IMG/VR virus record: IMGVR_UViG_3300007351_000002 | Strand: one strand, 5' to 3' | Length of the DNA: 64,000 nucleotides | Source of the DNA: a virus | Shown: positions 1,218-58,416 of the stretch, one piece after another | Layout of the letters: each line of letters starts with the position of its first letter | Position numbering within the stretch: position 1 is the stretch's first letter | Program-made: the position numbers and the translations under genes | The notes under the pieces: model-generated | What the model was told of the DNA's origin: nothing | The model's input: only the letters and a program-made list of their open reading frames with translations | Databases searched by the model: none

Positions 1218-1223
1218 ATTCTC

Positions 1224-4818: not shown

Positions 4819-4828
4819 CCGATAACTC

Positions 4829-4960: not shown

Positions 4961-5455
4961 TATCTCCCATTTGATACCCAAAGTATAGGATAGGTCGGAT
5001 GGAAAAGCAAACAAAAAAGAAAAATATTTTATTAGTCCTATAAGTAATGCCAGGTTGCGTATGTATGGTCTGATAAGTTATGGTCCGATAGCCTTTGGCG
5101 TCAAGCCAAAGAATAGTCCTATAATTAGTTAAAGTGTTAATGTAATGTGTTAGTCCGATAAATGGATATGGTTATAAGATCATTGAAAGTCCGATAAGGG
5201 TATGGCGGTTTTATACCGATAATGTTTTAGTTATAGGACCGTCCGAAAAACGCTGGGGGTTAACGCGCACCAAGACTCTAAAATGCATCCGAAGTTGGAA
5301 TCAAAGAATACTGATCTTGGGCGTCATGCATCGTTCCGCTTTGCGGAACAAACGTATGGGGTGCCGGTATTTTATAAACGAAAAAATGAAGTGCTTGCTG
5401 ATCTATAAAATGTTACCAAAAAAATCTGGTACTTAATGTATATTTAATTAACAAA

Positions 5456-17163: not shown

Positions 17164-17781
17164 TTATTCCTTTATATATTTCATAATGTCATCTAAAACT
17201 TCATCTGCCAAACCTATTTTAACAACTTCTTCTGCCGTATATATTTTATCTATAGTACAAAGCTTCTCTATTTGAGAAGTAGTTATTTTTGGATTTTTTA
17301 TTTTCATTTTTTCTCTATAGATGTTATACATTGTCAATCTGTCCATTTCAGATCTTTTTGCCCACACTTCGACATTTTTAGCATGACCAGAAAGATTCGT
17401 TGATCCGTCGTGTATAACAAATTCGCAATTTTGTGATATAACTCTTAAATCTGCTGCCTGTATTATTATAGACGCCATACTTGAACAATTACCAACAGCC
17501 ACTATAGTTATATAACATTTTGATGATTTTATAGTGTCGAATATGGCCATTCCATGCGACCACTCTCCACCTATATTATTCATTATTATAGTTATTGGCT
17601 TTTCTGATATAGAATTAAGATATGTTATGCTTTTTATTATTTTTTCTGCCATAGAAAAATCTGTACCAGATTCACTACCGTCTTCTTCTTCGAATAGTGA
17701 ACCCATATAGACCATTCTTTTTGGGACGAATACGCCATAATCAAAATATCTATCTAAATCATCCTTTGAATAACGCGACAT
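17164..17781 (-). CDS. ClpP-like serine protease (S14 family)
   Basis: IIMNNIGGEWSHGMAIFDTI, GNCSSMASIIIQA (Ser) and FVIHDGS (His) match the ClpP core motifs. A role as prohead protease cannot be excluded. Confidence 0.7.
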   Translation of the reverse strand: MSRYSKDDLDRYFDYGVFVPKRMVYMGSLFEEEDGSESGTDFSMAEKIIKSITYLNSISEKPITIIMNNIGGEWSHGMAIFDTIKSSKCYITIVAVGNCSSMASIIIQAADLRVISQNCEFVIHDGSTNLSGHAKNVEVWAKRSEMDRLTMYNIYREKMKIKNPKITTSQIEKLCTIDKIYTAEEVVKIGLADEVLDDIMKYIKE

Positions 17782-20564: not shown

Positions 20565-21125
20565 TTGCAAATGCGAAAAACAACGAAGGTATCGCAGGAA
20601 CTGATAGATCTGGCGACTCCAATAATAAATAAATTAGCCAAGCAAAGAAAGAATAAACATACTTTTGCATATTTTGAATCAGAAGATATATTTCAAGAAA
20701 TATGGCTTTTATGTTTAGATGCACTAGAAAGATATGATCCAAAATGTGGAAAATTGGAGAATTTTTTAAGCAAACATCTTTCGCATAGAATAACTAATTT
20801 AAAAAGAGATAAATATTTTAGACCAGAGAAAGATCCAGATTTATCCAAAAGAACATGGAATAGAATAAACATAATAAATGCAATTCCTATTGGACATAAT
20901 GACATATCTAATTCATCTAAATCAACATATAATTCACTTAATCAAAAAGATCCATTAGATGTATGCATAACTATAGAATTAAAAGAATTTATTATTAATA
21001 AATTACCAAAAGATATGATTAAAAATTTTGAATTGCTTATGAATGGAGAAAGATTAAAAAAAAGAATACTTACTCCATTAAGAGAAAAATTGCTTGAAAT
21101 AATAGACGAATACAATGTCAGTTAA
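20565..21125 (+). CDS. sigma-70-family-like (ECF/phage-type) transcription factor
   Basis: DIFQEIWLLCLDALERYDP...FLSKHLSHRITNLKRDKY resembles sigma region 2. At 186 aa, the size is typical of phage-encoded sigmas. Confidence 0.45.
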   Translation: MQMRKTTKVSQELIDLATPIINKLAKQRKNKHTFAYFESEDIFQEIWLLCLDALERYDPKCGKLENFLSKHLSHRITNLKRDKYFRPEKDPDLSKRTWNRINIINAIPIGHNDISNSSKSTYNSLNQKDPLDVCITIELKEFIINKLPKDMIKNFELLMNGERLKKRILTPLREKLLEIIDEYNVS

Positions 21126-30147: not shown

Positions 30148-31179
30148 ATGAAGTCAAAGAATAAAATACAAAAACCTACACAAGAGATGATAGATCTCTT
30201 GAGAGACACTGGATCTAATGATCGAAGTGTTTCTGAAAAAGCTATGAGATCATTGGCTGCTGCTCTGCAAGAACCTCTTCGTGAAGGTTTGTTAAATGGA
30301 GATATTCTTAATGGAATTTTCTCTGTAGAACAATTGCAGCCAGGCGCTACTGCTGAATATTCTCTAGATTTATATCAGCAACATCAGGATGGGCAATATA
30401 CTGCCTATCAGGTTCCAAGTGAAGGTGCCATTCCACAAAGAACAGTTTCGTCCGATAGTATTACTGTTCAAACATTTACTATCGCCAATTCAATAGATTG
30501 GCCTCTAAAATATAGTCGTGATGCAAGATGGAATGTTGTTGCTCGTGCTATGGAAGTAATGAATAACGGATTTGTTCGTAAAATTAATACCGATGGTTGG
30601 CATGCACTCATAACCGCTGCCGCTGGTAGAACCGACTTTGCTGGTGGCGCACCTATGGTTTTTGATAGTGCTGCTGCTGTTGGTCAGTTTACAAAGAGAT
30701 TAGTAAGTCTAATGAAAACATCTATGGCTAGATTGGCTGGTGGTAATAGTGCCACTCCTAATCGTGGTCGTCTAACAGATCTCTATATCAGTCTAGAAGC
30801 ATTAGAAGATATCAGAAATTGGGATATAGATGACGTAGATGATTTCACTCGGCGAGAAATATTTGTAGCATCAGATAGCGGTGGTCCTCTAGCATCACTT
30901 TATGGTGTTCAATTACATCCTCTATTCGAACTTGGTGTAGGTCAAGAATATCAGACATTCTTCGAGACATTGGGTGTGAGTATGGGAACAAGCGACGAAG
31001 AAATTGTTGTGGGCCTTGATTTGAGCACAAATGATTCATTCGTTATGCCAGTACGTGAACCACTAACTATTACAGAAGATCCTGCTCTGCATCGCAGACA
31101 GAAACAAGGGTTCTATGGATGGCAGGAACATGGGTTCGCGGTGCTCGACCCACGGAGGGTTATATTGGGCTCATTATAG
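30148..31179 (+). CDS. major capsid protein candidate
   Basis: 343 aa with a GGGGG/GTGA-type SD, higher GC than its neighbours, followed by a strong terminator. It sits at the canonical position after the scaffold. Confidence 0.65.
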   Translation: MKSKNKIQKPTQEMIDLLRDTGSNDRSVSEKAMRSLAAALQEPLREGLLNGDILNGIFSVEQLQPGATAEYSLDLYQQHQDGQYTAYQVPSEGAIPQRTVSSDSITVQTFTIANSIDWPLKYSRDARWNVVARAMEVMNNGFVRKINTDGWHALITAAAGRTDFAGGAPMVFDSAAAVGQFTKRLVSLMKTSMARLAGGNSATPNRGRLTDLYISLEALEDIRNWDIDDVDDFTRREIFVASDSGGPLASLYGVQLHPLFELGVGQEYQTFFETLGVSMGTSDEEIVVGLDLSTNDSFVMPVREPLTITEDPALHRRQKQGFYGWQEHGFAVLDPRRVILGSL

Positions 31180-31230: not shown

Positions 31231-31313
31231 TATAAAAAAAGTAAAACATTACGAAAATTTATTCAATTAGTTGCTATAATACCATATAGGAAAAATGTTT
31301 TTTGGAGAAATAC

Positions 31314-32564
31314 ATGAAATTTGATTCGGAAGATGTTAAAAGGATCATAGATCTTTATGTGAATGAAAATAAATCGGCTACAGAATTATCTAAAATATTT
31401 AATTGCACAATTAAAACTATTACAACTTATTTAAGAAATAATAATATAAAAATTAAGAATAGTGGATATTGGCACAAAAAGGTAGAAATTGAACAAATAA
31501 AATATGACTATGAAGTATTAAAATTATCCACGACACAAATTGCTAAAAAATATGGAATGAGTAATTCGTCTATTTTTTGCAGATTAAAAGATAACGGTAT
31601 ACAAATCAGGACAAGAAAAGAAGCTGTAAATCGTCAAATTCCATTATCGGAACATGAAAAAATTTGCGATTTATACATTAATGATAAAACACAAAATTGC
31701 GGAAAGATAGCAAAATTATACAATGTTCATAAAACTACAATAGCTAATATACTTAGAAATAACGGAATAATATTAGAAAAATCTATAGGAGAAAGAAATC
31801 CATCTTTTAAAGGTGGAATAACTCCATTACATACAAGAATTCGTAATTGCGAAAAATCTGAATTTTGGAAAAAGGCTTGTTTAGAAAGAGATGAATATAA
31901 ATGCAAAATAACCGGAGAAACTAGAGATTTGCAGGTTCATCACTTCCCTAAAACATTTTCTGAAATATTCGAAGAATTTTTAAGGCTATATCCTAATTTA
32001 AGACCAATAGAAAATTCTGATAAACTATTTGAGTTAGCACAAAATTATGAACCGTTCTGGGAGATAAATAATGGATTAACTATTTGTGAGTCTGTTCATA
32101 AAAGATTGCATACGAAAAAGGGTGTAAAAGATGAAGAAATAATTGCTCTACATAATCAGGGGTGGTCGTGTGAAAAAATATCTAATCATTTTGGTAAATC
32201 AAAAGGATTTGCCAGATCAAGATTATTATCTTTAGGAATACAATTGAGGGATGTCGGATACTATAATGAACAAAGAGGATCTATAACAGAAGAAATAAGT
32301 AAAGAAGTATTAGAAGCCTATGTCAATAATGAAACTACAAGGAATATATGCAAAAAATATAGTATTAGTAATGGAACTTTATATAAAATATTAGAGGAAA
32401 ATAATATAGTGCCAGGGAAAAGAAGGCGTGACCAAAGAAGTGATGCCACAAAACAAGCCGAAAGAGTAATAAAATTAAATGCCGCAGGCGTAACTATCGA
32501 AGAAATAGCTAAAATATACGAAGTTAGCGAAACTACCATAAGGAATATTTTAAAAATCAATTAA
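31314..32564 (+). CDS. HNH homing endonuclease flanked by six HTH DNA-binding modules
   Basis: Central HNH (LQVHHFP...ICESVHKRLH). Three repeated HTH units of about 45-55 aa lie before it and three after. Start taken at the ATG at 31314, after GGAG. Confidence 0.7.
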   Translation: MKFDSEDVKRIIDLYVNENKSATELSKIFNCTIKTITTYLRNNNIKIKNSGYWHKKVEIEQIKYDYEVLKLSTTQIAKKYGMSNSSIFCRLKDNGIQIRTRKEAVNRQIPLSEHEKICDLYINDKTQNCGKIAKLYNVHKTTIANILRNNGIILEKSIGERNPSFKGGITPLHTRIRNCEKSEFWKKACLERDEYKCKITGETRDLQVHHFPKTFSEIFEEFLRLYPNLRPIENSDKLFELAQNYEPFWEINNGLTICESVHKRLHTKKGVKDEEIIALHNQGWSCEKISNHFGKSKGFARSRLLSLGIQLRDVGYYNEQRGSITEEISKEVLEAYVNNETTRNICKKYSISNGTLYKILEENNIVPGKRRRDQRSDATKQAERVIKLNAAGVTIEEIAKIYEVSETTIRNILKIN

Positions 32565-33039: not shown

Positions 33040-34674
33040 ATGATAGATATTGGTCCATTTCAATTAGGCCAGATGGATATCGGCCCATTTCAATCAGAAA
33101 GTCAATTAGCTTCTGGAATTAATACATCTGGCAATTTATTTGTACATGGTTTTGACTTAATTAATGATAACATAGAAACTTTTGTTGGTGGACATATATC
33201 CTTTAATAAAAATACTATTTTGTCCGGACAATATATCTATTGGACAGATGTTTTTTCTACTGTTATAGAAAGAATTAAAATAGATGGTACTGATAGAACT
33301 ATTATTGTTAGCGGATTGTCTATATCACAGGGTATTTATGTAGACCAAGATAACAATTATCTTTATTGGATTGATCGCGGAACAGATAAAATTCAAAGAT
33401 CTAATCTCGACGGAACTAATGTTATAGATCTTGTTACTTCTGGACTTACAGATCCACAAGGCATTTTTGTTGATATAATAAACAATAAAATTTATTGGGT
33501 TGATTTTACACTTGGAAATATTAAAAGATGTGATACAAATGGATCTAATATAGAGATTTTTGCCTCTGGTTTATCTGGTCCAGAAGATGTATTTGTAGAT
33601 AATGTCAATGATAAAGTGTATTGGACAGAATCAACTAATCCAAATGATTCGGTTAAAAGAGCTAATTTAGACGGTTCTAATGTAGAAGTTATTGTTAGTG
33701 GTATAAATAATCCGGAAGGAATAGATTTAGATTTAACAAATAATAAAATATATTTCGCAGAATCTGATGGAAAGAAAATAAGAAGATGTAATCTTGATGG
33801 AACTTCGTTAGAAACATTGGTTGATACTATTGGAACACCCGTTGGTTTAGACATTGATGTAGACAACGATAAAATATATTGGGTAGAAATTACTCCCGAT
33901 ACAATACAAAAATCAAATTTGGATGGTAGCAATCAATCAACCATAATTTCTGGATTAGCTTCTAGACCGCAGCAACTAGATTTATATACATCTCCAGAAA
34001 TCATATTTACGAATTTATTTATACATGGAAATGAATCGTTAAACGATCAAATAAACCTTGTATTGCCTTATCCGAGTTTTATAACAGATACATTAAACGC
34101 CTTCTTAAAAGTTCCTGAATTTATTGATAATTCAATTGTATCTTTTATGAATGGACATATAGTTTCTACTAGCGGTGTAGATTTGTTTACAATCGGTAAT
34201 AGTTTATTAACAGATGAATTAACATTATTCCTAATGGTTCCAGAAACTATAAATAATGATGCCAATCTATTTATTAAAGGAACAGTTTCTGGTCTTCCGG
34301 TGTCTGAATTGGGTGATGATGATTTTGGTTTTAATTTAGATATAGTATTTGCTAGATCGGATTATAGTCCACAAATAATAGGAAGATTTATAACAGATCC
34401 AAATACAGTAAGTATTCAAATATATAATATTATAAGTGGTGTAAATACTTTGGTTTCGTTAATCAGTGATGAATGCTATCAAATAGGTGATACTGGAAGA
34501 TGGGCGTGGTCAACAAGTAATTTACCATCATTGCAAGAAACAGTGAATCAGTTTATTTTTGTAATGACCGGTGACAACTTAGAAACATTTAAAGGTAAAT
34601 TTATTATTAAAAATAGTGTTAATATAAATAGCGGCAAAATACCAAGAGATAATAGTCATATTAGGAGAGTGTAG
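33040..34674 (+). CDS. fibre-like protein: DLFIxG repeats plus a six-blade YWTD-type beta-propeller plus C-terminal domain A
   Basis: Six blades are marked by YIYWTD, YLYWID, KIYWVD, KVYWTE, KIYFAE and KIYWVE, each followed by an R/K-x-NLDG-(T/S)-N type motif. 14-aa LF-x-G repeats flank the propeller. Confidence 0.7.
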   Translation: MIDIGPFQLGQMDIGPFQSESQLASGINTSGNLFVHGFDLINDNIETFVGGHISFNKNTILSGQYIYWTDVFSTVIERIKIDGTDRTIIVSGLSISQGIYVDQDNNYLYWIDRGTDKIQRSNLDGTNVIDLVTSGLTDPQGIFVDIINNKIYWVDFTLGNIKRCDTNGSNIEIFASGLSGPEDVFVDNVNDKVYWTESTNPNDSVKRANLDGSNVEVIVSGINNPEGIDLDLTNNKIYFAESDGKKIRRCNLDGTSLETLVDTIGTPVGLDIDVDNDKIYWVEITPDTIQKSNLDGSNQSTIISGLASRPQQLDLYTSPEIIFTNLFIHGNESLNDQINLVLPYPSFITDTLNAFLKVPEFIDNSIVSFMNGHIVSTSGVDLFTIGNSLLTDELTLFLMVPETINNDANLFIKGTVSGLPVSELGDDDFGFNLDIVFARSDYSPQIIGRFITDPNTVSIQIYNIISGVNTLVSLISDECYQIGDTGRWAWSTSNLPSLQETVNQFIFVMTGDNLETFKGKFIIKNSVNINSGKIPRDNSHIRRV

Positions 34675-36834: not shown

Positions 36835-37425
36835 GTGGCCATATTTAACGATAATATTGATTTTTCAATTAACGGCATTCAGACGCCACAGACACTTTCT
36901 TGTCCAGCACTCGATCCGTTAGCTACAATTCAAATCAGTCAAGAGTTAATAGAAATTTATCAAGGGAGAATAGATTCTTTGATAAATCAGTTGGGCAAAA
37001 ATGTTCTTTTGGAATTCGATCCAATAAAAGAACCATGTACAAATTGTGAATTTGATATAATTAAGAATAGATCAAATGGAATATATAAGATGGGGGGATC
37101 TATTCCGTTTACGAGAGGTTCTAAATGTCCGTACTGTAAGGGTTTGGGATTTTTAGAAATTAAAACAACAAAATGTATAAAATGTTTAATAAAATGGAGA
37201 CCAAAAGAACTCAAGAATTTTGGAATATCTGTAAATAAAAATTATAATATAGTAAGACTCAAAGGATTTTTAACCGATATAGACGATTTTATAAGAGCAA
37301 AAACCGCAATTGTTGATTATGATATACAAAATATTTTTAATCAGAGAGTTAGACTCATACGCGGTCCTACGCCGGTTGGCTTGAGGGAGGATAGATATAT
37401 GATAAGTTATTGGGAGTTAATTTAA
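36835..37425 (+). CDS. zinc-ribbon structural module B, stand-alone (196 aa)
   Basis: GTG start abutting the upstream stop. CTNC...CPYCKG zinc ribbon. About 60% identical by eye to the last 180 aa or so of the 1580-aa protein. Confidence 0.55.
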   Translation: MAIFNDNIDFSINGIQTPQTLSCPALDPLATIQISQELIEIYQGRIDSLINQLGKNVLLEFDPIKEPCTNCEFDIIKNRSNGIYKMGGSIPFTRGSKCPYCKGLGFLEIKTTKCIKCLIKWRPKELKNFGISVNKNYNIVRLKGFLTDIDDFIRAKTAIVDYDIQNIFNQRVRLIRGPTPVGLREDRYMISYWELI

Positions 37426-37743: not shown

Positions 37744-40700
37744 ATGATAAAAGTCGCTTCAATAAGAACGGGAATACCAATTTCTGCGACACAACAAACT
37801 ATAACTATTCCAAACATAGGTAGCCCAAAAGCCGCAATGTTTATAATGAATAGATGTCCAAGTGGAAGCACTATAACCCCAAGTGTCGCATTCAATATAG
37901 GATTTACTAATGGTTCAGGTTCAAATCAATTAGTTTATGCAATAAACTGCGAAGATAATGTTGGAACGTCAGATACACATAGGATGTCTAGTGACGATCT
38001 ATGTATGATTATGCTTAATCCTACCGATGGAACCGAGGATTGTAGAGCAGCATTTGTTGAATGGGTTGAGGACGGGGTAACAATAGAGTGGTTAACTGCA
38101 CCGAGTGATGATTTTACATTAACTACAGTATTATTCGCTGGTGATGTAAGTGAATTAAATACATATATAGGAACGTTTACAACTCCTGATGTATTAAATT
38201 CTGGTATTGTTGTAAGTGGAATAGGTTTTGAACCAGATCAAGTGATAGGTATTGGTGGTGGTGGAACATTTGGATTTGATTTAACGACAAGGGGTAATGC
38301 CTGTCTTAGTTTTGGGTTTTGCGACAATGATAATGGAACTGTAAAACAGGGATCAGTAAATTATTGTAATTTAGATAATTTGGCCGATACATCCGTAAGA
38401 GCATTGGTATCACAAACTTATTTTGCTCGTGATTTTGCAGGAGACTTCGGTGCGGTAGAACTTGGCGATTTTAATTCTTCAGGATTTACTGCTACAACAA
38501 GAATTAGTGGCGCAGGAATGATAATGGGCTTTTTGGCCCTTAAATATAATGGAAATGTTAAACACGATCTTGGATTTATTAGTACACCGACTTTTGCTAC
38601 TGGTATTCAAACAATTAGTGGTATTGGATTTGGTCCACAATTTATAGCAGAATTACAAACAATGTGTGGTACATATGACACACAAATTACCGATTTTAAT
38701 GCCGGATCAATTGGAATAGCTACCTTTGGAAGTGGTATGGTAACACCATCGTCATTTCAGATGAATCATAATTTAAGATCTCAAACTGGTGCCGCTACCA
38801 GCAATGAAGATAGCAGAACTTTTGGTAATACTACATTTTTAAGAAGATCTGATGAAGCACTTACAGTTGGTATAACATCTACATTACAATCTGTATATTA
38901 TGATGGTTACAGTAAAAACTTTTCTTCAAATGTAGGAAATAAAAGATGGATTAATTTACTTATAAGTAATCCGATATCATCTAGTGGCATTAATTTTTAT
39001 ATTAATGGTATTGGCACTGAAACAGATAATCTTAATTTGTCTATAGTAGGACACGAGAATTTAATAGCTAGTACAGTTGATATCTATTTTTCTACTTTTT
39101 TTTCTAATGAAGTAAGAAGAACCGATCCAAACGGTAGTTATGAACATGTAGTATTTTCTGGTTCTCCTATTATAAGCGGATACGCACAAGCCATAGATAT
39201 AGATTCTATTAATAATAAACTTTATTTTACAGACGATCTCTCTAATGATGCTATAATGAAATCTGTTGATTTGGATACTCTTAATTATAATGATATAATA
39301 TCAAGTCCAAATATAGATTATGTTAGAGGATTTAGAGTATTAGATGCAAGCGGATTAATGTATTGGATAGATGTCAGCAATGAGGTGTCTGGTGGTTATG
39401 GCGAAATAAGTAGGGCAAATCTAGATGGTAGTAATCAACAATTAATTATAGCAGAAAGCGGATTGATACCACAGGATGTAGATATTGATCTTGTAGAAAA
39501 TAAATTATACTGGACAGCAAATAAAAGTCCACTTATTTCTGGTTCTGGAATAACTTGGTCTATTAGAAAATCTAATCTTGATGGATCTAATATAGAGATA
39601 ATAAGTTCTGGAATATCTAGATTTCATGGCGGTATAGCAATTGATTCTGTAAATAGAAAGGTTTATTGGGGTATTGTTAGCGAGTCTTATCCTGATGAAC
39701 CAACAATGTATATATCTAACTTAGATGGAAGCGATAGACAGATATTTATTCCCAGTGGATATAAAAGTCCATACGATATAGATATAGATGAAACAAGAGG
39801 AAAATTATATTGGACAGAAACTATTTTACCAACAAGAGGTTTATATAAAGTAAATCTAGATGGAACTAATATAGAGCAATTGCCGGTAGATATAACTGTA
39901 TGCGATGAGTTAGTCTGTGAAAATGATCAGGTGCTTTCCGTTAGTGTTGATGAAAGATATTATAGAAAACTTTTTATCTATGGATTTGAAGTAATAAATG
40001 ATAATGTCGATCTTGTTATTTTTGGACATGCAGAAGATTCTAATAATATAGAAATATTTATTTTTGGTAATGACTCTATTGTAAATAATATAGATTTATT
40101 CATCGAAGGTGGTGCTACTGCCGTAACCATAACAAATGAAATAGATTTATTTATAACTGGTAATGAAACAACAACTGATAATATAAATCTTTTTATTTAC
40201 GGAAAAGATAATCTAAATGATATTTGCGATTTTTTCATACATGGTTTCGATTCATTTAATAATAATATAGAACTTTTTGTTTTCGGTCATGATACCACAG
40301 AAAATAATAAATTATATACAGGAACATCCCATAGTATATCTCCACCGGGAATCTTAAGGAGATCTAATGAAGATGGTAGTAATCAGGTATCATTAGTTAG
40401 TTCGGAAAATATTTTACAAATATGTGCGGATCAATATGAAAATATTTTGTTCTGGAATACTGATTCTATAATAACAAAATCCGATCTTAACGGAAATAAT
40501 AAACAAATAATAAATAATGGAACGGCAAATTCTTTAGATGTTGATATTGTTAATAATAAAATATATGTCTCATCTGTTAGTGGAATACGAAGGTTTAATT
40601 ATGATGGAAGTTCTGTAGAATCAATTGTTACCGGAAACATAATTGCATTAGGAATAGATTATTTAAATACAACAAGTTTATATTTTTCACCCTTTGCATC

Positions 40701-42486
40701 CGGAAATCATATATTTAAATCTAACTTGGATGGATCAAACGTTCAATCCATATTTTCTCTATCTAGCGGTAATACTATAAGCCGATTAGATGTCAATGTA
40801 ATTGATTCTACTATATATTATTATACTACACAATCTAATACAATTAGAAAAATTGATACTAATGGTAACGATTTAGGAATCGTTGGTTCTGGATTTCCTC
40901 CAATATCTACTACAAATCAACTATCTGTAGAGCCATATACTGATAAAATTTTTATAGCAAATGATAATAATGGAATATTCGTTAGCGGAACCATTAATAA
41001 TTTTCAACAAATAAATATTAGTGGCTTTGCATTATCCATAATGATTTTGCCGTTAGATGCCATAACACTATTTTTAAATGGTGATGAATCAATAACTGAT
41101 AATATAGATTTATTTATACGCGGATATATTTTATTTAATAATAGTACGAATCTATTTATAAATGGGCATGAATTAAATTCACAAGATTTAGATTTATTTA
41201 TAAATGGTCATGAAATAATCGCTACAAATATAGATTTATTTACTTATGGAATTGATAGTAGTTTTAATTCATTAGACCTATTTGCACATGGGTATGACAC
41301 AGAAAATAGTGGATGTGATTTTTATACAAATGGTAGTCAAGGATTTAATAATAATATAGACTTGTTTGTTTCCGGAATAGGTCTAATAACTAATAATATT
41401 ACACTATTCATATCTTCTATGAATACATTTTCTAGTGGAATAGACTTATTCATTTATGGTATAGATTCCAATTTTAATAATATAGATTTTGTAATAGTTG
41501 GTAGCCAATCATTTAATGATGATTTAAGTTTAACAATATTCGGCAAAGATAATAATTTTGATGATTGTGATTTATTCACGCACGGCAAAAATACAGAATT
41601 AAATTCTATAGATTTATTTATTAACGGTTCTGCACAACATTCAAATTCTATAGATTTATATATAAGAGGAAAAGATAATAATAACAATAAAATAGATCTA
41701 TTCATAAGTGGTATACCATTGAGTGTACTCTTCGTAAGCAACATAGACTTGTTTATATCGGGTCTAGACACCGTAATAAACGATGTAGACCTTTTCTTGT
41801 CTGGCACAATTTTAATAACTAACAATATAGACTTATTTATATATGGCATAGCATCTATAAATAGTTCTATAGATCTATTTGTTAAACAAAATGATGAAAT
41901 AATTGATAATATCAACTTATTCATTCGTGGATTACGACAACCAGATAACCAAGCTTGTCCCGCTTTAGATCCAACACTACCAATCCAAATAAGTAATGAT
42001 TTAATCGAAATCTATCAATCTAGAATAGATTCATTAATAAATCAATTAGGGAAAAATGTATTACTTGAATTTAATCCAATAATTCAGCCATGTACAAACT
42101 GTGAATTCGATATTATTTCTGGCAAATCTAAAGGCATTTATAAGTCCGGTGGACCAATACCTTTTACCAAGGGCCAAAAATGTCCATATTGTAAGGGAAT
42201 CGGTTTTTTGGAACAACCAGTTTATAAGTGTATAAAATGTTTGATACAATGGAATCCTAAAGATGCAGAGAATTATGGAATATCTATAGACGATCCTGCG
42301 AGTATAGTAAGACTCAAGGGGTTTTTAACAGACGGGGATGATATGGTAAGAGCTAGGGCGGCAATAACAAATTATGATATACAAGATGTAATTAAATTAA
42401 AAGTTAAATTAATAAAGGGTCCAATAATTGTTGGATTAAGACAGAGCCGATATATTATTACTTTCTGGAAATTACTGGATTCATAA
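37744..42486 (+). CDS. giant modular fibre protein (1580 aa): N-domain C, YWTD propeller, 8 DLFIxG repeats, second propeller, about 21 DLFIxG repeats, zinc-ribbon module B'
   Basis: Uninterrupted ORF. Module boundaries were read from the translation: propellers at about 39075-39890 and 40305-40990, repeats at about 39967-40310 and 41055-41931, module B' at about 41940-42483. Confidence 0.8.
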   Translation: MIKVASIRTGIPISATQQTITIPNIGSPKAAMFIMNRCPSGSTITPSVAFNIGFTNGSGSNQLVYAINCEDNVGTSDTHRMSSDDLCMIMLNPTDGTEDCRAAFVEWVEDGVTIEWLTAPSDDFTLTTVLFAGDVSELNTYIGTFTTPDVLNSGIVVSGIGFEPDQVIGIGGGGTFGFDLTTRGNACLSFGFCDNDNGTVKQGSVNYCNLDNLADTSVRALVSQTYFARDFAGDFGAVELGDFNSSGFTATTRISGAGMIMGFLALKYNGNVKHDLGFISTPTFATGIQTISGIGFGPQFIAELQTMCGTYDTQITDFNAGSIGIATFGSGMVTPSSFQMNHNLRSQTGAATSNEDSRTFGNTTFLRRSDEALTVGITSTLQSVYYDGYSKNFSSNVGNKRWINLLISNPISSSGINFYINGIGTETDNLNLSIVGHENLIASTVDIYFSTFFSNEVRRTDPNGSYEHVVFSGSPIISGYAQAIDIDSINNKLYFTDDLSNDAIMKSVDLDTLNYNDIISSPNIDYVRGFRVLDASGLMYWIDVSNEVSGGYGEISRANLDGSNQQLIIAESGLIPQDVDIDLVENKLYWTANKSPLISGSGITWSIRKSNLDGSNIEIISSGISRFHGGIAIDSVNRKVYWGIVSESYPDEPTMYISNLDGSDRQIFIPSGYKSPYDIDIDETRGKLYWTETILPTRGLYKVNLDGTNIEQLPVDITVCDELVCENDQVLSVSVDERYYRKLFIYGFEVINDNVDLVIFGHAEDSNNIEIFIFGNDSIVNNIDLFIEGGATAVTITNEIDLFITGNETTTDNINLFIYGKDNLNDICDFFIHGFDSFNNNIELFVFGHDTTENNKLYTGTSHSISPPGILRRSNEDGSNQVSLVSSENILQICADQYENILFWNTDSIITKSDLNGNNKQIINNGTANSLDVDIVNNKIYVSSVSGIRRFNYDGSSVESIVTGNIIALGIDYLNTTSLYFSPFASGNHIFKSNLDGSNVQSIFSLSSGNTISRLDVNVIDSTIYYYTTQSNTIRKIDTNGNDLGIVGSGFPPISTTNQLSVEPYTDKIFIANDNNGIFVSGTINNFQQINISGFALSIMILPLDAITLFLNGDESITDNIDLFIRGYILFNNSTNLFINGHELNSQDLDLFINGHEIIATNIDLFTYGIDSSFNSLDLFAHGYDTENSGCDFYTNGSQGFNNNIDLFVSGIGLITNNITLFISSMNTFSSGIDLFIYGIDSNFNNIDFVIVGSQSFNDDLSLTIFGKDNNFDDCDLFTHGKNTELNSIDLFINGSAQHSNSIDLYIRGKDNNNNKIDLFISGIPLSVLFVSNIDLFISGLDTVINDVDLFLSGTILITNNIDLFIYGIASINSSIDLFVKQNDEIIDNINLFIRGLRQPDNQACPALDPTLPIQISNDLIEIYQSRIDSLINQLGKNVLLEFNPIIQPCTNCEFDIISGKSKGIYKSGGPIPFTKGQKCPYCKGIGFLEQPVYKCIKCLIQWNPKDAENYGISIDDPASIVRLKGFLTDGDDMVRARAAITNYDIQDVIKLKVKLIKGPIIVGLRQSRYIITFWKLLDS

Positions 42487-45305: not shown

Positions 45306-46061
45306 ATGAAAAAAGAAACTATAGAAGCAAGAAGATTGGCTGGTCTTTGTATTAGATGCGGAGTTAAAGTTGTAGAAGGAAGAAGCTTATGTCAATATCA
45401 TTTAGATAAATCTAAAACTAAAAGCGAAAAAAGAAGAGAAAAATTAAGAAATAATAATTCATGTTTACGTTGCGGAAAACCAGCAAGAGACGGTATGAAA
45501 AGTTGTGAATTTTGTGGTAAAAAAGCTGCCCAATATTCTAATAAATACAACAAATCTTTATATACAGAAAGGCAAGAATCAAACATTTGCGTAAGGTGTG
45601 GCGGCTCTAAAGAAACGGATTCTGTGCATTGTAATGAATGTCAAAAATATATGAAGTCCAAAGATAAGAAAAAATATGATGAATTAAAAATTTTAAATTT
45701 ATGCACTCATTGTGGTAGTGAAAAAGATATAGATGGGACTCTATGTTCTGTATGTAAAGATATCAATAGTAAAAATGGTTATAAATCAAGAAGATCACAA
45801 AAAGAAAGAGTTATAAACCATTATGGTGGAAAATGCTTTTGTTGTGGTGAAACAAAAATTAAATTCTTAACAATTGATCATATAAATAATGATGGCTATA
45901 AACATAGAAAAGATATTAACAAAGAAATATGTAGATGGATAATAAATAATAATTTTCCAGAAAACATGTTTCAAGTAGCCTGCTATAATTGTAACTGCGG
46001 TCGTGCTAAAAATAACGGAATCTGTCCTCATCAAGAACAAAAATTAGAGCCGAACGTATAA
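45306..46061 (+). CDS. HNH endonuclease with four N-terminal zinc-ribbon repeats
   Basis: Repeats of the form C(I/L/V/T)(R/H)CG...C..C, then CFCCGE...LTIDHINNDGYKHRKD...ACYNCNCGRAKNNG. Confidence 0.75.
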   Translation: MKKETIEARRLAGLCIRCGVKVVEGRSLCQYHLDKSKTKSEKRREKLRNNNSCLRCGKPARDGMKSCEFCGKKAAQYSNKYNKSLYTERQESNICVRCGGSKETDSVHCNECQKYMKSKDKKKYDELKILNLCTHCGSEKDIDGTLCSVCKDINSKNGYKSRRSQKERVINHYGGKCFCCGETKIKFLTIDHINNDGYKHRKDINKEICRWIINNNFPENMFQVACYNCNCGRAKNNGICPHQEQKLEPNV

Positions 46062-47528: not shown

Positions 47529-47738
47529 ATGAGATGCGTTGATTGCGACAAAGTTATATATAAAAATCAAGAAAGGGACATGCAAGATTCTGCTTGGAAT
47601 GAACTATTTTTTTATTTCCATTTTCAAATGAATCAAGGATATATAACTGGTGAAACTTTTGAACAATTATTTCAATGTTTGGTTAGATTAGATAGGAAAT
47701 ATCATACATGCTCAACGAATTGTGGTCTGACAGAATAA
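47529..47738 (+). CDS. hypothetical Cys-containing protein (69 aa)
   Basis: ORF with a GGAG SD. Overlaps the hpt start by 31 nt. Confidence 0.4.
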   Translation: MRCVDCDKVIYKNQERDMQDSAWNELFFYFHFQMNQGYITGETFEQLFQCLVRLDRKYHTCSTNCGLTE

Positions 47739-48241
47739 AACCATTGATATCTATAGAAGAAATAGATAACAGGATAAAGGAAATAGGAAAAGAAATTTCT
47801 GACAAATATACGTCGGATTTGAATAGATTAGTATTAATAGGTGTGATGGATGGGGCTGGCCCATTTCTATTCGATCTAATAAAGAATATTGAAACCAAGT
47901 TAGAAATATTTACTGTCAAAATAAAGACTTATGACGGAGTGTATAAATCTAGGTCTATTAGTAGTCCGTTAAAAGAGTTATCATCATGTAATATAAAGAA
48001 TGCCAATGTAATAGTGGTAGATGATATTCTTGATACTGGTAATACAATTAATATGATAGAAAAAACAATAATGGCTTTAGGACCAGCTAATTTAGAATTT
48101 GCACTTTTATTGAATAAAAATAAAACCGATATAAAACCAGATTATATCGGGTTTAATATACCGGATGAATTTGTAATTGGCTATGGTTTAGATTATAAAG
48201 GATTTTATCGCAACTTACAGGGGGTATTTACATATGCCTAA
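47708..48241 (+). CDS. hpt: hypoxanthine(-guanine) phosphoribosyltransferase
   Basis: PRPP-binding motif VIVVDDILDTGNTI and C-terminal FVIGYGLDYKGFYRNL, both typical of HPRT. 177 aa. Confidence 0.85.
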   Translation: MLNELWSDRIKPLISIEEIDNRIKEIGKEISDKYTSDLNRLVLIGVMDGAGPFLFDLIKNIETKLEIFTVKIKTYDGVYKSRSISSPLKELSSCNIKNANVIVVDDILDTGNTINMIEKTIMALGPANLEFALLLNKNKTDIKPDYIGFNIPDEFVIGYGLDYKGFYRNLQGVFTYA

Positions 48242-52407: not shown

Positions 52408-55400
52408 ATGGCACAACCATTTGTTCTTGATGTTAACTTACAAATACAGGAAATACTTGGTTTAAATAATGTTAAACAACAACTATCTTCAGTTGCCGGT
52501 TCTTCTGCACAGGTTAATGTTGGAGCACAGGGTGTTAACCAAACAAATGCTGCATTAGGTTCTACAGCAAAAGCTGCCGCAACCGCCGCAGTAGCATTAA
52601 ATAATGTCAGTTCTGCACAAATAAAATCAGTAGCCACAACTACTGCTAGCAATGCTGCTATTCGTAGTGGTGCTAGTTTATTCGACAACTACGCAAATAG
52701 AGTGGCATTAGCAGGTGCCAGATATTCTGCATTCGTTATAGCAACCGCTATTCCATTTGCTGGTCTTGCTGTTATAGGACAGGCTACACAATCTATCATA
52801 GAATTAGATGCGGCTATGATAAAATTGAGTCAAGTTTTAAGACAGCCGCAAGAAGATATAGATGCTCTTAGAAAAGAAATAATAAGATTGTCTGTAGATA
52901 CAGGAACATCTATAAAACAAATATCTGAATCGGCACTAACCTTAGCTCAAGCCGGTTTTCTTAGTGGACCACAAGATTTTGCTAAATTCTTAGAGCCATT
53001 ATCAAAAGTTCCATTACTGCCAACATTCAAAGATATAAATCAGGCTACAGAAGGTATAATAGCTTCATTAAGTCAATTTGGTAAAGCCGGATTAGAACCA
53101 ATAGATGTTCTTGATAAATTAACTAGAGTAGCAGATAGATTCGCCGTTGAATCTGCCGACTTAATTGAAGGTTTGAGACGTGCTGGTGGTACATTTTCTG
53201 CATTGGGTGGAGATCTTGATGAATTTTTGGCTATTTTTACTACAATAAGGGCTACTACCAGAGAAAGTGCTGAAGCTATTGCGACATCATTAAAGACTAT
53301 TAGTACAAGACTAGCACAACCAGCAACACTAACATTTTTAGAAAGTATAGGTGTGTCTGTTAGGGATCAAAAGGGTGAACTTCTTGGTCTTATAGATATA
53401 TTTAAAAATGTAGGAGAAGTATTTAATCAATCAAGTAAAGAACAACAGGCTGCAATAGGTACACAGTTAGGCGGCTTAAGAAATATAGGTAGAGTATTCG
53501 CAGGATTACAAAATCCAGATTTAACACAAAATGTTTTAGCGGTTTCTAGGGCGTCTGCTGGTGCCGTATCGGAGAGTGCTGCTAAAGGTCTAGAAAAAAT
53601 AAGTACACAGATAGATTTATTAGTTGCTAGATTTAATGAATTAGCACAGTCTTTAGCAGAACCAATTTTCGTACCATTTATAGAAGGTGCTTTAACATTA
53701 GGTAATGCATTAGTAACTGTATTAGATGCTATAAAACCAGTATTACCATTATTTGTTCAATTAATTAGTATTGCTGCTGGACTTAAAGTATTTGGAGTTG
53801 CTGCGTCTGCTGTTAAGGGATTGGCTACATCCTTATCTTCTATAAGTCTTGGTGGTCTTCCACAACTTGGCGGATTTTTTGGTAATGGCGCAAGATCTGT
53901 TGCTGGACCTGGACAAAATGTTATTCCAGTAGGAGGTGCTGGCGCAAGAACTGTTTCTGGTGCAGGAGCTATAATTGGTTCACAAATTGGTCAATTAGGA
54001 GCGTTGTTAGGATTAAATTTAATAGCTGGTAAATTATCTGATAGTTTTGAAAAAACAGACAACAGTATAGTAAAATTAGGATCTGGTGCTTTACAAACAG
54101 CAACAACACTTTTGGGTCTTGCATCAATTTTAACTGGTCAATCTATTACCGGATTATTTAAAGGTCTTGGTGCTTTAGGCGGAAAACTACTTGGTATCAG
54201 CGCATTAGGAATAGGTGCTGTTAATGCTATAACAAGTCAAACGTCTGTAAATATAGACGAATTAGTTTCTAAAGCAGAAAAAGAAATAAATTCATTAAAT
54301 GTAGATATACAATCTGGAGATAAATTCGGTTTAGAGAATGCTATTTCTAAAATAACCGGTCCACTAGCATCTACATTTTCTTCTATTGCTGATGAATTTG
54401 ATCCAAATACATTTAAGGGTGTCGCTAAAACATTTTCAGAAAGACTAAAATCAATTTTTACCGGAGATATATCCAAAGGTTTAGGATTAGATTTATCAAA
54501 TGAAATAAAAGGTAATGTTACTATAACAAATTCTGATGCAGATAAAATAATAAAACAAATAATAGGAGATAATCCAAAATTATTGTCCGATATAGTAAAA
54601 GAATCTATAACAGAATTTGGAACAAATTTTCAGTCCGGATTAGAAGGTAAAATAGAAAAAACTTTAGAGCCATTTAGTAATATAATAGATGTAAAGGCTT
54701 TATCTGTTAAAATAAGAGAAAGAATTATACAATCTATTGGTGGATTTAAGGTAATACCGGATCTGAGACTGCAAGCCGAAAGAGATGCTGCCGAAAAATT
54801 AATTGTAGATTCAACAAAAAGAATAGCCGAAAATTTAAGAAGTATAATATTGCCACAAGCATTGGGGTCAGAATTAACAAGATTATCAAATGTTATTAGT
54901 AAAACAGTAGAATCAATAGATTCATCAATATCTTCTTTTGATAGTTTAACTTCAACAATAGGAAAAATAGAAACACCACAAATATCTACTACGGTTACTC
55001 CAGAAGCTGTTAGGAGATCTATAGAATCTGGTAATTTGGATTTGGGTACAGGATTTGATACATTAGATACGGCAACACAAAAAATTCTTGTAACCCAAAG
55101 GGCTATATCGGATTTCACAAATTCTTTAATAATTTCTTTAGGCGATATAGAAAAACAAGTTGGTATAGGTGGAATTTCTGCTTCTGATATAATAAATAAT
55201 TTTGTTAATGAATTCTTATCTAAATCAGAAGGTTTACCGCCAGAGGCACAGGATGCCATAAGATCGTCTGCTGGTTTAATATCATCGGAAATAGAACAAT
55301 CCTTAATAAACAGTCAAATTGGTATAGATCCAGATAAATTAAAGAATATTATAAAAAATGCACTTGGTGGATTTGGTGATGTTAGTAATCAAGTTGTAGA

Positions 55401-57168
55401 ACAGGTTCAGGGTTTAATAGAAGCACAATTAAGATTATCCAATGCACAAAACAAAGCAAGAGATTTAGAAGCACAAATAATAACATCTGAATCTGTTAGA
55501 CCGGCAACTATATTGCAATCATTAAGTGATACGTTAGAGGGGTTGGGAATAACTGGACTAAGGGTGTCTGATAATATAGATGAAGCACAAGATGCTATAA
55601 GCAGAATAGATCAGGGCTTAGTTATTTCTAAATTACTTTTTCAAGAATTAGCTCCGGCAATTGAAGAAAGAAATAAATTAGAAGCAGAATTAAGACAAGC
55701 CACTAAAGAAAATGCATCTAATATTGGCCAATTAACAGATCAATTTACAGAAGCGTCTATTAAAGTAAGAGAAATTAAAAAGGCATTTGCAGAAGTTGGA
55801 AAAATATCTGATATAGCTGCTTCAAAAATAGGAGGGGATGATGTAGATACACTTCAGGCCAAACAGGTTAAAGATCAATTAGATACAATAAAAGAAATAT
55901 CTGGTGTTGCAGCAAAGCTAACAGAATTAGATGCAGCGACAGAATCAAGTAGGATATTTGAATCAGCTAATGTAAAATTTAGTAAAAGTGTCGATAAATT
56001 TGAAGCCACTATAATAAAGGGTTTCAGCAACTTACAACAAAATGAATCAAATATTAGGTTTTTACCACAAACTAATACAACAGAATCCAATTTATTGAAA
56101 AATGAAGTTCAAGATATTTTCCAAAGTCAATTAGAAAATCAAAGAAATTTTTCTCAAAATATAGTCGATGCAGGAACTGCAATAGGATTATTTTCAAAAT
56201 TTGTATCTGATTCTATTTTGGGAACACAATTTTTAGATGATGCAGCCAATGTATCTAGAGCACCATTTGATCAGGGCCAATTTACCGAAGCTATAAAAAA
56301 TACAATAGCTCAAATAGCAGTAAATAATGTTAATAATCCAAATATAGCAACAAATCCGTTGGCTTTTCTTGGAACTTCAGTAGAAGATATTCAAAAAAAT
56401 CTTAAATTAACATTAGATCAAGAGACACAATCGAAATTAATTATTAATTTGTCTCCAGAAGCAAAACAATTTTTATCACCAATTAATAATACTCCACAAA
56501 TTCCGTTGAATCCGGTGGAACAATTGGGACAACCATTAGATATTACAAATTTACAGTCATCTGCTATAAACTTAGATTCGGCCTCTGCTTCGTTGATTAC
56601 TTTTTCTGATTTATTTGGTTCTGTAATAACTAATTTGCAATCATTTATTGATCAGTCAAAAGTTTCGCCAGACAACATAGGTAATGCTGTGGTACAGGCC
56701 ACTCAAGATGTTCCGTCCAGTGATTTTATAAAAACTATAAGCGAAAAAATATCAGAATTAGTTGCTGCTGTTCAAACGCAAACAGAAAACCAAGAACAGA
56801 TAGTTTCAAAAGATAAGACGCAAGAAGTGAAAATAGATGGACTTAATGATGTGCAAGAAGCAACAAATAAGAATTCTGAAGTATTAGCAGATGCAAATAC
56901 CAATATTTCTAATCTTTCTAATCAATTATCTAAAACAGAAGATGCTTTGGCAAAAGGTGTTAATTTAACTTTGGATGCGGTTCAACAAGTTAATGTAAAT
57001 ATCACTGGTATTCCAGATGAAATAGATGGTATAGGCGATAGACTTCAGGTTGTTGCAAGAGATATAGCTAAAAGTGTTATATTTGATGTTTTGAGTGAAT
57101 TAGAAAGATCGGCAGGAAGTACGGACGCCGCTCTTGCATTCAGTAATGCTAAGAATGCTTTGGGGTAA
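52408..57168 (+). CDS. tail tape measure protein (1586 aa)
   Basis: The length, a TP901-type core pattern (..AMIKLSQVL..LSVDTGTSIKQISESALTLAQAGF..), Gly/Ala-rich hydrophobic segments and long coiled-coil regions. Confidence 0.85.
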   Translation: MAQPFVLDVNLQIQEILGLNNVKQQLSSVAGSSAQVNVGAQGVNQTNAALGSTAKAAATAAVALNNVSSAQIKSVATTTASNAAIRSGASLFDNYANRVALAGARYSAFVIATAIPFAGLAVIGQATQSIIELDAAMIKLSQVLRQPQEDIDALRKEIIRLSVDTGTSIKQISESALTLAQAGFLSGPQDFAKFLEPLSKVPLLPTFKDINQATEGIIASLSQFGKAGLEPIDVLDKLTRVADRFAVESADLIEGLRRAGGTFSALGGDLDEFLAIFTTIRATTRESAEAIATSLKTISTRLAQPATLTFLESIGVSVRDQKGELLGLIDIFKNVGEVFNQSSKEQQAAIGTQLGGLRNIGRVFAGLQNPDLTQNVLAVSRASAGAVSESAAKGLEKISTQIDLLVARFNELAQSLAEPIFVPFIEGALTLGNALVTVLDAIKPVLPLFVQLISIAAGLKVFGVAASAVKGLATSLSSISLGGLPQLGGFFGNGARSVAGPGQNVIPVGGAGARTVSGAGAIIGSQIGQLGALLGLNLIAGKLSDSFEKTDNSIVKLGSGALQTATTLLGLASILTGQSITGLFKGLGALGGKLLGISALGIGAVNAITSQTSVNIDELVSKAEKEINSLNVDIQSGDKFGLENAISKITGPLASTFSSIADEFDPNTFKGVAKTFSERLKSIFTGDISKGLGLDLSNEIKGNVTITNSDADKIIKQIIGDNPKLLSDIVKESITEFGTNFQSGLEGKIEKTLEPFSNIIDVKALSVKIRERIIQSIGGFKVIPDLRLQAERDAAEKLIVDSTKRIAENLRSIILPQALGSELTRLSNVISKTVESIDSSISSFDSLTSTIGKIETPQISTTVTPEAVRRSIESGNLDLGTGFDTLDTATQKILVTQRAISDFTNSLIISLGDIEKQVGIGGISASDIINNFVNEFLSKSEGLPPEAQDAIRSSAGLISSEIEQSLINSQIGIDPDKLKNIIKNALGGFGDVSNQVVEQVQGLIEAQLRLSNAQNKARDLEAQIITSESVRPATILQSLSDTLEGLGITGLRVSDNIDEAQDAISRIDQGLVISKLLFQELAPAIEERNKLEAELRQATKENASNIGQLTDQFTEASIKVREIKKAFAEVGKISDIAASKIGGDDVDTLQAKQVKDQLDTIKEISGVAAKLTELDAATESSRIFESANVKFSKSVDKFEATIIKGFSNLQQNESNIRFLPQTNTTESNLLKNEVQDIFQSQLENQRNFSQNIVDAGTAIGLFSKFVSDSILGTQFLDDAANVSRAPFDQGQFTEAIKNTIAQIAVNNVNNPNIATNPLAFLGTSVEDIQKNLKLTLDQETQSKLIINLSPEAKQFLSPINNTPQIPLNPVEQLGQPLDITNLQSSAINLDSASASLITFSDLFGSVITNLQSFIDQSKVSPDNIGNAVVQATQDVPSSDFIKTISEKISELVAAVQTQTENQEQIVSKDKTQEVKIDGLNDVQEATNKNSEVLADANTNISNLSNQLSKTEDALAKGVNLTLDAVQQVNVNITGIPDEIDGIGDRLQVVARDIAKSVIFDVLSELERSAGSTDAALAFSNAKNALG

Positions 57169-57795: not shown

Positions 57796-58416
57796 ATGGC
57801 TGGTCCAACAATTAGTTCTTTGGATTTAGTACCTTCTGGTATTTCTTTAGATGAATTTGCTATAGAATCATCCGGAATATCGGAAAAGATAACTCTTTCA
57901 CAAATATCAATATTTACAAATACTAGTGGTATATTAGTTTCATTATCAAACGATGAATCACCAACTTCAAGTACGTCTATGGTAAGAGTATCCGGAATGG
58001 ATGTAATAATTCCATCCGGAATGTATACATTTGAATATTATGTCCGTGCTCAGTTTGCCAATACAACACAAAGTATAAAACTTGCCGTAAATCATACTGG
58101 TACTACAACTATGTTCATTTATAATATGTTTCATCCGGGAAGTTTAAATACTCAGGCTAATTCATCGTCAGACCAAGAAAGAAGTGGGGCTGCCGGTGCC
58201 ATATATTGTGTTAATACCACAAGAACAAAAAATACCACTTTAGGTCCACAAGCTAGTGTTGATACTATAAATTCTGATTTATTATATAGAATAAGTGGAA
58301 CAGCAATCATAACGGATTTAGGAACTTTGCAATTATTTGTTGGCGCAGAAAGTGCTGCAAATGGTAATATTACAATAAAATCTGGTACATGCCTAATTGT
58401 TAAAAAGGTTGGTTAA
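57796..58416 (+). CDS. distal tail / receptor-binding candidate, tandem paralog 2 (206 aa)
   Basis: Paralog of 57177-57794, with a shared block VRVSGMDV..G.Y.FEYY.RAQFA......AVNHTGTTT. Confidence 0.55.
   Translation: MAGPTISSLDLVPSGISLDEFAIESSGISEKITLSQISIFTNTSGILVSLSNDESPTSSTSMVRVSGMDVIIPSGMYTFEYYVRAQFANTTQSIKLAVNHTGTTTMFIYNMFHPGSLNTQANSSSDQERSGAAGAIYCVNTTRTKNTTLGPQASVDTINSDLLYRISGTAIITDLGTLQLFVGAESAANGNITIKSGTCLIVKKVG

Follow-up and report, generated by a model that had tools for sequence, protein, structure and literature searches.

A 14-residue tandem repeat, proposed as a fibre stalk, in late genes of an uncultivated large phage

What is the 14-residue repeat that runs through three long proteins of the virus record IMGVR_UViG_3300007351_000002 (IMG/VR), and what might it build? 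The window analysed here, the whole stretch of 64,000 nucleotides, encodes these proteins in genes that we call A, B and C, and the unit itself is labelled the LF repeat, after a core of L-F/Y-I/V-x-G. About 55 units in total were placed across the three proteins. A Cys-rich C-terminal domain of A, labelled CT, is also encoded as a stand-alone gene. We describe the repeat and its distribution, the domains with which it is combined, and the evidence bearing on the proposal that it forms the stalk of virion fibres. Positions of all features are collected in Table 1.

The LF repeat and its distribution

Units were placed on the translations of A, B and C by a regular expression and a unit hidden Markov model (HMM), and periodicity was evaluated by BLOSUM62 autocorrelation; the control was the highest value at any lag from 1 to 42 in each of 1000 shuffled sequences. 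The lag-14 autocorrelation of run 2 of A is 1.32, compared to a shuffle maximum of -0.48 ± 0.07, and that of run 1 is 1.20, compared to a shuffled maximum of 0.26. The N-terminal run of B likewise shows periodicity above its shuffled controls. The strict 14-aa period claimed in a sequence-only reading of this DNA is thus borne out for these three runs. In the C-terminal part of B (aa 577-795), the periodicity is not significant, with the top lag of 15 inside the shuffle range, though the motif is present; this loose motif is conserved in the orthologues P0001-P0004. The region of C spanning aa 323-425 has its autocorrelation peak at lag 42. The copies and coordinates given in the same reading, about 50 units in all, hold to within a few bases. 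It had confined the repeat to three fibre proteins; A, B and C do carry it, but a single LF unit, NIDFSING (nt 36853-36876), also opens a fourth protein, the stand-alone CT protein, and the repeat was not found in any further open reading frame (ORF) of the window. It is noted that a 156-aa antisense ORF lies wholly within run 2 of A; it is most likely a by-product of the codon composition of the repeat, not a gene.

At the DNA level, the 21 units of run 2 share 33-71% identity (mean 50%), and only 2.1 copies with a period of 42 nt, at 41153-41242, are picked up by Tandem Repeats Finder. Because the DNA units are this diverged and so few copies are seen by the program, a recent expansion and an assembly artefact are both excluded, as had been judged from the letters alone. 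The LF repeat is real and ancient.

The consensus derived from 1521 in-register units is [S/N/D]-[I/L/G]-[D/N/T]-L-F/Y-I/V/T-x-G-[H/Y/F/P/L]-[D/E]-x-[I/V/..]-[S/N/T]-[G/N/D/S]. Conservation is strongest at L4 (94%), F/Y5 (94%), I/V/T6 (93%) and G8 (88%), while positions 7 and 9-14 are highly variable. An exhaustive HMM search of 1.84 billion cluster representatives with A2, a 56-column in-register repeat profile, returned 841 matches at E<=1e-3; of these, 386 reach E<=1e-10 and 77 reach E<=1e-30. Protein lengths among the best 150 are 232-3835 aa. The distribution of the repeat in metagenomic proteins is therefore one of 841 clusters with a dominant 14-aa spacing. In the best 171 proteins of this search, which also served for the counts of C-termini below, 1077 of about 1590 neighbour gaps of up to 30 aa are exactly 14 aa; a gap of 28 aa, equivalent to one missed unit, occurs in 162 cases, and other spacings of 12-17 aa in only tens of cases. 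The number of units per protein ranges from about 4 to 57, and several members (P0001-P0004 and P0025-P0028) consist almost entirely of repeats. Word-indexed searches performed poorly, with 31 metagenomic proteins found by run 2 of A, two matches by full-length A and one by the repeat profile; the size of the family is visible only by the exhaustive HMM search.

No described family accounts for the repeat. Pfam comparison of A, B and C at E<=0.1 gave no fibre-repeat family, neither Adeno_shaft nor Hep_Hag, and B gave no match at all; the same two families were absent at E<=1e-3 from the 48 representative relatives used for the Pfam domain survey. Among PDB chain sequences, fibre sequences included, no match was found with a 299-aa repeat segment or with the A2 profile. 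PHROGs gave no match for A, B, C or seven neighbouring genes, and tblastn found no match in 50,697 GenBank phage records when queried with A, a distant family member or a distant CT protein. A literature search on beta-spiral repeats in phages and on YWTD domains in phage fibres found no earlier description. Judged by sequence comparison, the LF repeat belongs to no described family, in agreement with the original failure to assign it to one. It is noted that a viral fibre shaft repeat is an already known kind of object; what had gone unannotated until now is the LF sequence family.

Fibre genes, partner domains and the neck-like domain

The genes A, B and C are flanked by genes for TerL, a major capsid protein (MCP)-like protein and a tape-measure protein. 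The sequence of A is identical to that of protein P0173 from the Joint Genome Institute (JGI), encoded on a 172,525-bp contig. A 167.6-kb contig (L001) is syntenic with the window over a region that starts at the scaffold and capsid genes and includes the fibre genes, and a further locus, L065, is likewise syntenic. The L001 counterpart of a 158-aa gene upstream of the MCP gene matches Phage_cement, a decoration protein, and a PDB sequence search with the 310-aa and 343-aa neighbour proteins gave no match. The closest TerL of a cultured phage is only ~25% identical to that of the window. The window belongs to an uncultivated phage of ~170 kb, and we propose that the repeat serves a lineage of such tailed phages of ~165-175 kb.

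Read from the proposed distal end, A consists of a globular domain, a YWTD propeller, eight LF units, another region resembling a propeller, 21 LF units and CT. The first propeller is supported by a match to Ldl_recept_b (PF00058) at aa 537-578 (E=1.3e-7) and by the recurrence of YW.. and ..LDGSN blades in the translation. In the region between the two LF runs (aa 855-1105), five or six blades of ~42 aa with ..DGSN.. motifs can be seen by eye, and no Pfam match was obtained; the region may represent a second, degenerate YWTD-like propeller. The N-terminal globular domain has no Pfam match and no PDB sequence match. It is paralogous to the domain inserted in B, since BLASTP aligns aa 14-403 of A with aa 188-563 of B at 28% identity (E=1e-35).

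Gene B is the third gene after the tape-measure gene, and in L065 this slot is occupied by an orthologue of 409 aa without the insert. B thus corresponds to the 409-aa orthologues P0001-P0004 with a ~380-aa domain inserted in the shaft. The N- and C-terminal modules of C recur in P0007, P0008 and the loci L009-L019, and PF00058 repeats score above the gathering threshold in both A and C. Across the 48 surveyed proteins, the propeller-type partners of the repeat are Ldl_recept_b (12 proteins), DUF5050 (7) and SGL (7), and the others are Laminin_G_3, a ConA-like lectin domain (8), Disaggr_repeat (4), CBM96 (3), DUF2341 (3), RCC1 (1) and NEAT (1). Taken by their sequence assignments, these domains form an adhesin-like, predicted ligand-binding repertoire.

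The ends of the proteins are modular as well. Two N-terminal motifs recur, M..KYLLENS.VDGYLLEDGSG (the type of B) and a duplicated M.DIGA.Q (the type of C), and at least four C-terminal types are combined with the same shaft. CT ends 46 of the 171 proteins, a truncated LF unit of the B type (...L-F/Y-x-x-G-F/Y/W-stop) ends 75, and ...KWIHP....EYL ends 13, the rest having other termini.

CT is a domain of ~177 aa with four invariant cysteines, C-x-N-C ... C-P-x-C; the CxxCxGxG form, in which x-G-x-G follows the second pair, is nearly invariant. The stand-alone protein, encoded directly upstream of A, is 63% identical to the CT of A. Identity is 45-87% across the close group and 26-34% for distant stand-alone CT proteins. 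CT is present in 60 IMG/VR viral loci, many of 160-180 kb, most of which have a stand-alone CT gene of 163-202 aa; LF repeats occur in 25 of the 82 CT ORFs. Phages of the ~165-kb group have, in addition, CT fused to the C-terminus of one to three nearby fibre proteins, as a second, third or fourth copy. Every stand-alone copy examined in this group (L005, L007, L008, L010-L012, L014, L017, L018, L021, L022 and L028) starts with exactly one LF unit, M..GN.xFFINGxxPxPxxSCP. Docking via a terminal LF unit was considered for the CT-less fibres encoded directly upstream of stand-alone neck genes and found no support: nearly all of those checked end in the domain of the C type, ...KWIHP....DYLV, the exceptions being two without this end and one ORF cut by the locus end.

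An AlphaFold2 model of the stand-alone CT protein from a 36-sequence alignment has a predicted local distance difference test score (pLDDT) of 89.8 and shows a helix and a beta-sandwich. Its best Foldseek matches in the PDB are the portal-neck complexes containing T4 gp13/gp14 and the necks of phages 812 and phiCD508, with E of 6e-3 to 0.1 and a probability of 0.98 for the top match and 0.13-0.80 for the next seven. In BFVD, the named matches are mostly annotated as head-completion/neck, head-closure, head-to-tail connector or SPP1 gp15/16-type proteins, with a probability of ~1.0 and a modest target template-modelling (TM) score of 0.5-0.6. Pfam, PHROGs and PDB profiles gave no match for CT except zinc-finger-like noise (DnaJ 1exk, E=0.36). 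The CT gene lies between capsid and tail genes, as is the case for head-closure/neck proteins, and a distant locus, L043, keeps the gene string CT-206-319-344 aa. Considering that neck and connector proteins top both Foldseek lists and that the gene is found between the capsid and tail genes, we suggest on these modest Foldseek scores that CT is a head-closure/neck protein with an inserted zinc ribbon. Since its CT also exists as a stand-alone neck-like protein, A is most likely a paralogue of the neck protein that has a fibre of 1400 aa at its N-terminus.

CT resembles head-closure or stopper proteins, such as SPP1 gp16 and T4 gp14, in size, predicted fold and gene position between capsid and tail genes. 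It differs from them in having an inserted, putative four-Cys zinc ribbon and no family match, and in being duplicated and fused to long fibres. The whiskers of T4 fibritin (wac) on the gp13/gp14 neck offer another comparison, being likewise fibres that arise from the head-tail junction, and the predicted anchor of A resembles gp13/gp14 complexes. Fibritin is a separate coiled-coil trimer bound non-covalently to the neck. In contrast, the fibre of A would be covalently fused to a neck-protein paralogue, with a proposed stalk rich in beta-strands instead of a coiled coil.

Table 1. Positions of the LF-repeat genes, their parts and neighbouring features in the 64,000-nt window
Feature	Positions	Strand	Residues (aa)	Remarks
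Gene A	37744-42486	+	1580	proposed neck fibre
A, N-terminal globular domain	37744-38958	+	1-405	unknown family, adhesin-like
A, YWTD (LDL-receptor class B) beta-propeller	39130-39960	+	~463-739	boundaries inferred
A, LF run 1	39961-40305	+	740-854	8 units, one 17-aa spacing
A, putative second, degenerate YWTD-like propeller region	40306-41058	+	855-1105	between LF runs, by eye
A, LF run 2	41059-41949	+	1106-1402	21 units: 16 in exact 14-aa register, a 17-aa step, 5 more
A, CT domain	41950-42483	+	1403-1580	
Antisense ORF in A run 2	41454-41924	-	156	most likely not a gene
Stand-alone CT protein	36835-37425	+	196	GTG start; one LF unit, linker, neck-protein-like domain
Gene B	58416-60803	+	795	N-terminal motif MIGKYLLGNSSVDGYLLEDGS, 9 LF units, inserted globular domain, loose LF set; proposed tail-tip/baseplate fibre
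B, LF run	58563-58940	+	50-175	9 units, perfect 14-aa register
B, inserted globular domain	58977-60104	+	188-563	
B, loose LF set	60144-60800	+	577-795	~10 units, spacing 13-37 aa, ends ...NLFIRGF*
Gene C	33040-34674	+	544	duplicated N-terminal MxDIGPFQ motif
C, LF units, N-terminal	33127-33210	+	30-57	2 units
C, YWTD propeller	~33217-34005	+		Ldl_recept_b E=3.6e-29, 5 stretches
C, LF units after propeller	34006-34299	+	323-420	~4 units
C, small C-terminal domain	34327-34671	+		
MCP-like gene	30148-31179			
Tape-measure gene	52408-57168		1586	
Multi-helix-turn-helix ORF	31302-32564		420	TTG start
Protein with sub-threshold zinc-ribbon matches	45306-46061		251	DZR_2, DZR, E ~6e-4 or weaker
Phosphoribosyltransferase	47708-48241			Pribosyltran, E=3e-19
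ClpP-family protease	17164-17781	-		
Sigma-70 region-2-like protein	20565-21125	+		weak match
HNH endonuclease ORF	664-1185			
tRNA-Met	1144-1218	-		
GC-rich island	1000-5300			

Fold and role of the repeat

We consider it probable, with moderate confidence, that the LF repeat forms an oligomeric beta-stalk of virion fibres; the stalk role, the location on the virion, the strand geometry and the oligomeric state are what we infer from the sequences and their context. The features expected of a fibre stalk are found, since the repeat length is variable, the ends mix and match, and in-line insertions are tolerated. The context agrees with the earlier description of A, B and C as fibre proteins: they are genes of the structural module with adhesin-like partners, modular anchors, a neck-like anchor in one case and the slot after the tape-measure gene in another. 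In the proposed arrangement, the repeat would be a spacer of adjustable length, tolerant of insertions, that separates the anchor from the domains for ligand binding (YWTD propellers, lectin-like and unknown globular). Within the unit, I2, L4 and I6 would share one face of a short strand and alternate with D3 and F/Y5, F/Y5 being on the opposite face, with G8 in a tight turn at the strand's end. Because both strand faces would be hydrophobic, and a lone coil of two sheets would expose a Phe ladder, we expect several chains or sheets to pack together, and the unit most likely folds only in such multi-chain or multi-sheet packing. A trimer would be the likeliest oligomeric state, with either a beta-spiral-like fold or a 14-residue beta-roll like that of the YadA head. 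The CT of fibre A probably sits in or beside the neck ring, with the N-terminal adhesin domains pointing outward, as a neck fibre or whisker. Fibre B has a conserved N-terminal peptide and is encoded in a tail-tip gene slot, and fibre C would be anchored by an N-terminus of a third type.

When A aa 1095-1580 was predicted as a monomer by AlphaFold2 from a 10-sequence alignment, the pLDDT was ~45 over the repeats and 55-80 in the CT part. This low-confidence model contains irregular strands of 8-28 residues, without a regular solenoid or roll. Foldseek with the first AlphaFold2 model (pLDDT 50, low confidence) found no match at E<=1e-3. The low pLDDT over the repeats is consistent with folding that depends on oligomerization, which it neither confirms nor refutes. 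Nor does a monomer model refute the sequence-only reading, whose proposed check was the modelling of trimers.

Several observations weigh against a stalk anchored in this way. The failure of the monomer prediction could simply reflect the 10-sequence alignment. Covariation over 1091 adjacent-unit pairs, evaluated by mutual information with average product correction (MI-APC), gave only sequence-local and in-register pairs (2-2', 14-14'), the latter confounded by tandem duplication and subfamily structure. The 75 of 171 proteins that end on a truncated repeat have no obvious distal or proximal domain there, which leaves the polarity of the fibre uncertain. The likeness of CT to neck proteins is weak by Foldseek (PDB E >=6e-3, query TM 0.3-0.4) and is without sequence-family support. 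Neck rings are 6- or 12-fold, and there is no simple mapping of such rings onto trimeric shafts. Finally, no family member was found in a cultured phage among the GenBank phage records searched, and the family is known from genes alone.

The closest question of fold is whether the repeat is a divergent member of a known fibre family, either the triple beta-spiral or the YadA-head/Hep_Hag type, and structurally nothing new. To our knowledge, few shaft folds built of sequence repeats are known: the triple beta-spiral, the triple beta-helix, the coiled coil and collagen. The triple beta-spiral of adenovirus fibre, reovirus sigma1 and PRD1 P5 (PF00608) is homotrimeric with a period of 15-16 residues, alternating aliphatics, a Gly/Pro turn and occasional longer loops, and it forms a stalk between anchor and binding domains. 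The YadA head (PF05658), part of a bacterial surface protein, is a trimeric left-handed parallel beta-roll with two strands and 14 residues per turn and an NSVAIG consensus. Like the spiral, the LF repeat is a short tandem pseudo-repeat in which alternating aliphatics are followed by a Gly turn. The phi-x-phi-x-phi-x-G-x-phi pattern resembles the adenovirus shaft consensus, and longer loops are tolerated, here as 17-aa variants. However, its period is 14 instead of 15-16, its L-F/Y-I/V-x-G core holds three hydrophobic residues in a row, and there is no profile match. The exact 14-residue period is that of the YadA head, with which the repeat also shares an aliphatic-x-aliphatic-Gly core, an adhesin context and the second hydrophobic face that the packing of three rolls needs; it differs in reading IDLFIxG instead of NSVAIG, in having no Pfam match, and in belonging to phages instead of a bacterial surface protein. 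The period could fit the YadA-head beta-roll at least as well as the adenovirus/reovirus spiral, to which the sequence-only reading had likened the repeat. Considering that neither Adeno_shaft nor Hep_Hag is matched by the window proteins or their 48 relatives, that no PDB sequence or profile match was obtained, and that the consecutive hydrophobics L-F-I are not known to belong to either consensus, we regard membership of a known family as unlikely, while giving it real weight. Similarly doubtful, in our view, is a far-reaching joint reading in which the LF fold is unseen in solved structures and serves as a universal plug-and-play stalk, fibre-bearing paralogues replace subunits of the head-closure ring, and the single LF unit of every stand-alone neck protein docks or primes LF shafts, including members ending in ...L-Y-x-H-G-F-COOH.

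Other roles can be considered for the same proteins. The repeat could be a monomeric beta-hairpin or solenoid binding module, similar to choline-binding or other cell-wall-binding repeats, whose aromatics bind a repetitive polymer of the host surface, making it part of the receptor-binding apparatus and no passive stalk. An aromatic is indeed conserved at position 5 and an aromatic or His at position 9, the partner domains are carbohydrate-binding, the members P0001-P0004 and P0025-P0028 contain little but repeats, and the AlphaFold2 model, at low confidence, is a meander of about one strand per repeat. Yet the best-conserved residues, L4, F5, I6 and G8, resemble a structural core and not a ligand site, the surface positions 7 and 9-14 are the highly variable ones, AlphaFold2 yielded no confident monomer model, and a range of ~4-57 repeats per protein is as expected for spacers; a binding module therefore appears improbable. 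Still further from the evidence, A, B and C might be phage-encoded secreted or cell-surface proteins, involved in superinfection exclusion or acting as biofilm adhesins, and merely placed in the late region. They are known from genes alone, cellular surface proteins can likewise have YWTD, lectin and CBM domains, and a scan of genome collections matched only three records of metagenome-assembled genomes (MAGs), labelled cellular (L002-L004). Against this, no signal-peptide-like N-termini are evident in the three translations, the genes lie among capsid, neck-like and tail genes with one in the conserved slot after the tape-measure gene, and A is fused to a neck-like domain that is also a conserved stand-alone gene of the structural module. 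We consider this explanation highly improbable.

Host, neighbouring features and significance

One of the three MAG records, L003 (CP070695.1 41756-62280), is labelled 'Ca. Heimdallarchaeota archaeon bin6 chromosome' and encodes two adjacent CT-bearing proteins of 1259 aa and 563 aa. The 1259-aa protein carries LF repeats and has an N-terminus identical to that of P0065, and the downstream gene string is that of the window. The other two matches are Phycisphaerales and Balneolaceae contigs. L003 would be a provirus within an Asgard MAG or else a phage contig that was mis-binned. Upstream of its packaging genes, the window encodes a protease of the ClpP family and a sigma-70 region-2-like protein; the match of the second is weak (E=8e-5) and lies below the Pfam gathering cut-off. 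Because both are encoded, a bacterial host is favoured; an Asgard-archaeal host was set aside, as a bacterial host with mis-binned contigs seems likelier.

Several neighbouring features were also noted. An ORF with several helix-turn-helix domains and an ANT/KilAC-like stretch is oddly placed between the major capsid and fibre genes. L001 has a counterpart of 422 aa at the equivalent position, and the ORF might represent a mobile or regulatory insertion. The phosphoribosyltransferase gene is found inside the structural block, also in L001, and together with the gene for the 251-aa protein with sub-threshold zinc-ribbon matches it sits between the neck/fibre genes and the tape-measure gene. Near the start of the window, a GC-rich island has a GC fraction of 0.45-0.54, compared to ~0.30 elsewhere; its GC skew is negative, ORFs >110 aa are nearly absent, and it adjoins the tRNA-Met gene and the HNH endonuclease ORF. 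The 9-mer GTCCKATAA occurs 19 times in the window against 1.1 expected, 18 of them within 2891-5239, for the most part in + orientation. Folded as RNA, the segment 2601-3500 (- strand) has z = -6.4, and Rfam found nothing except the tRNA. Possible identities of the island are an origin or iteron array, a cluster of promoters and a large structured RNA.

The LF repeat, with its clean 14-residue signature, defines a family that comprises at least several hundred clusters of proteins and is so far confined to uncultivated large phages. With its profile, genes for fibres and adhesins can be annotated in those parts of phage "dark matter" on which Pfam and PHROGs are silent. The covalent fusion of a fibre to a duplicated neck domain suggests an unusual decoration of the head-tail junction and provides a Rosetta-stone link between shaft and neck. 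With its regularity and tolerance of domain insertions, the repeat is also a candidate for use as a scaffold in fibre engineering. Few viral structures are made of simple sequence repeats, fibre shafts being one such case, and a structure of the LF repeat would yield a new fibre fold or else bring the beta-spiral or the YadA beta-roll to phages.

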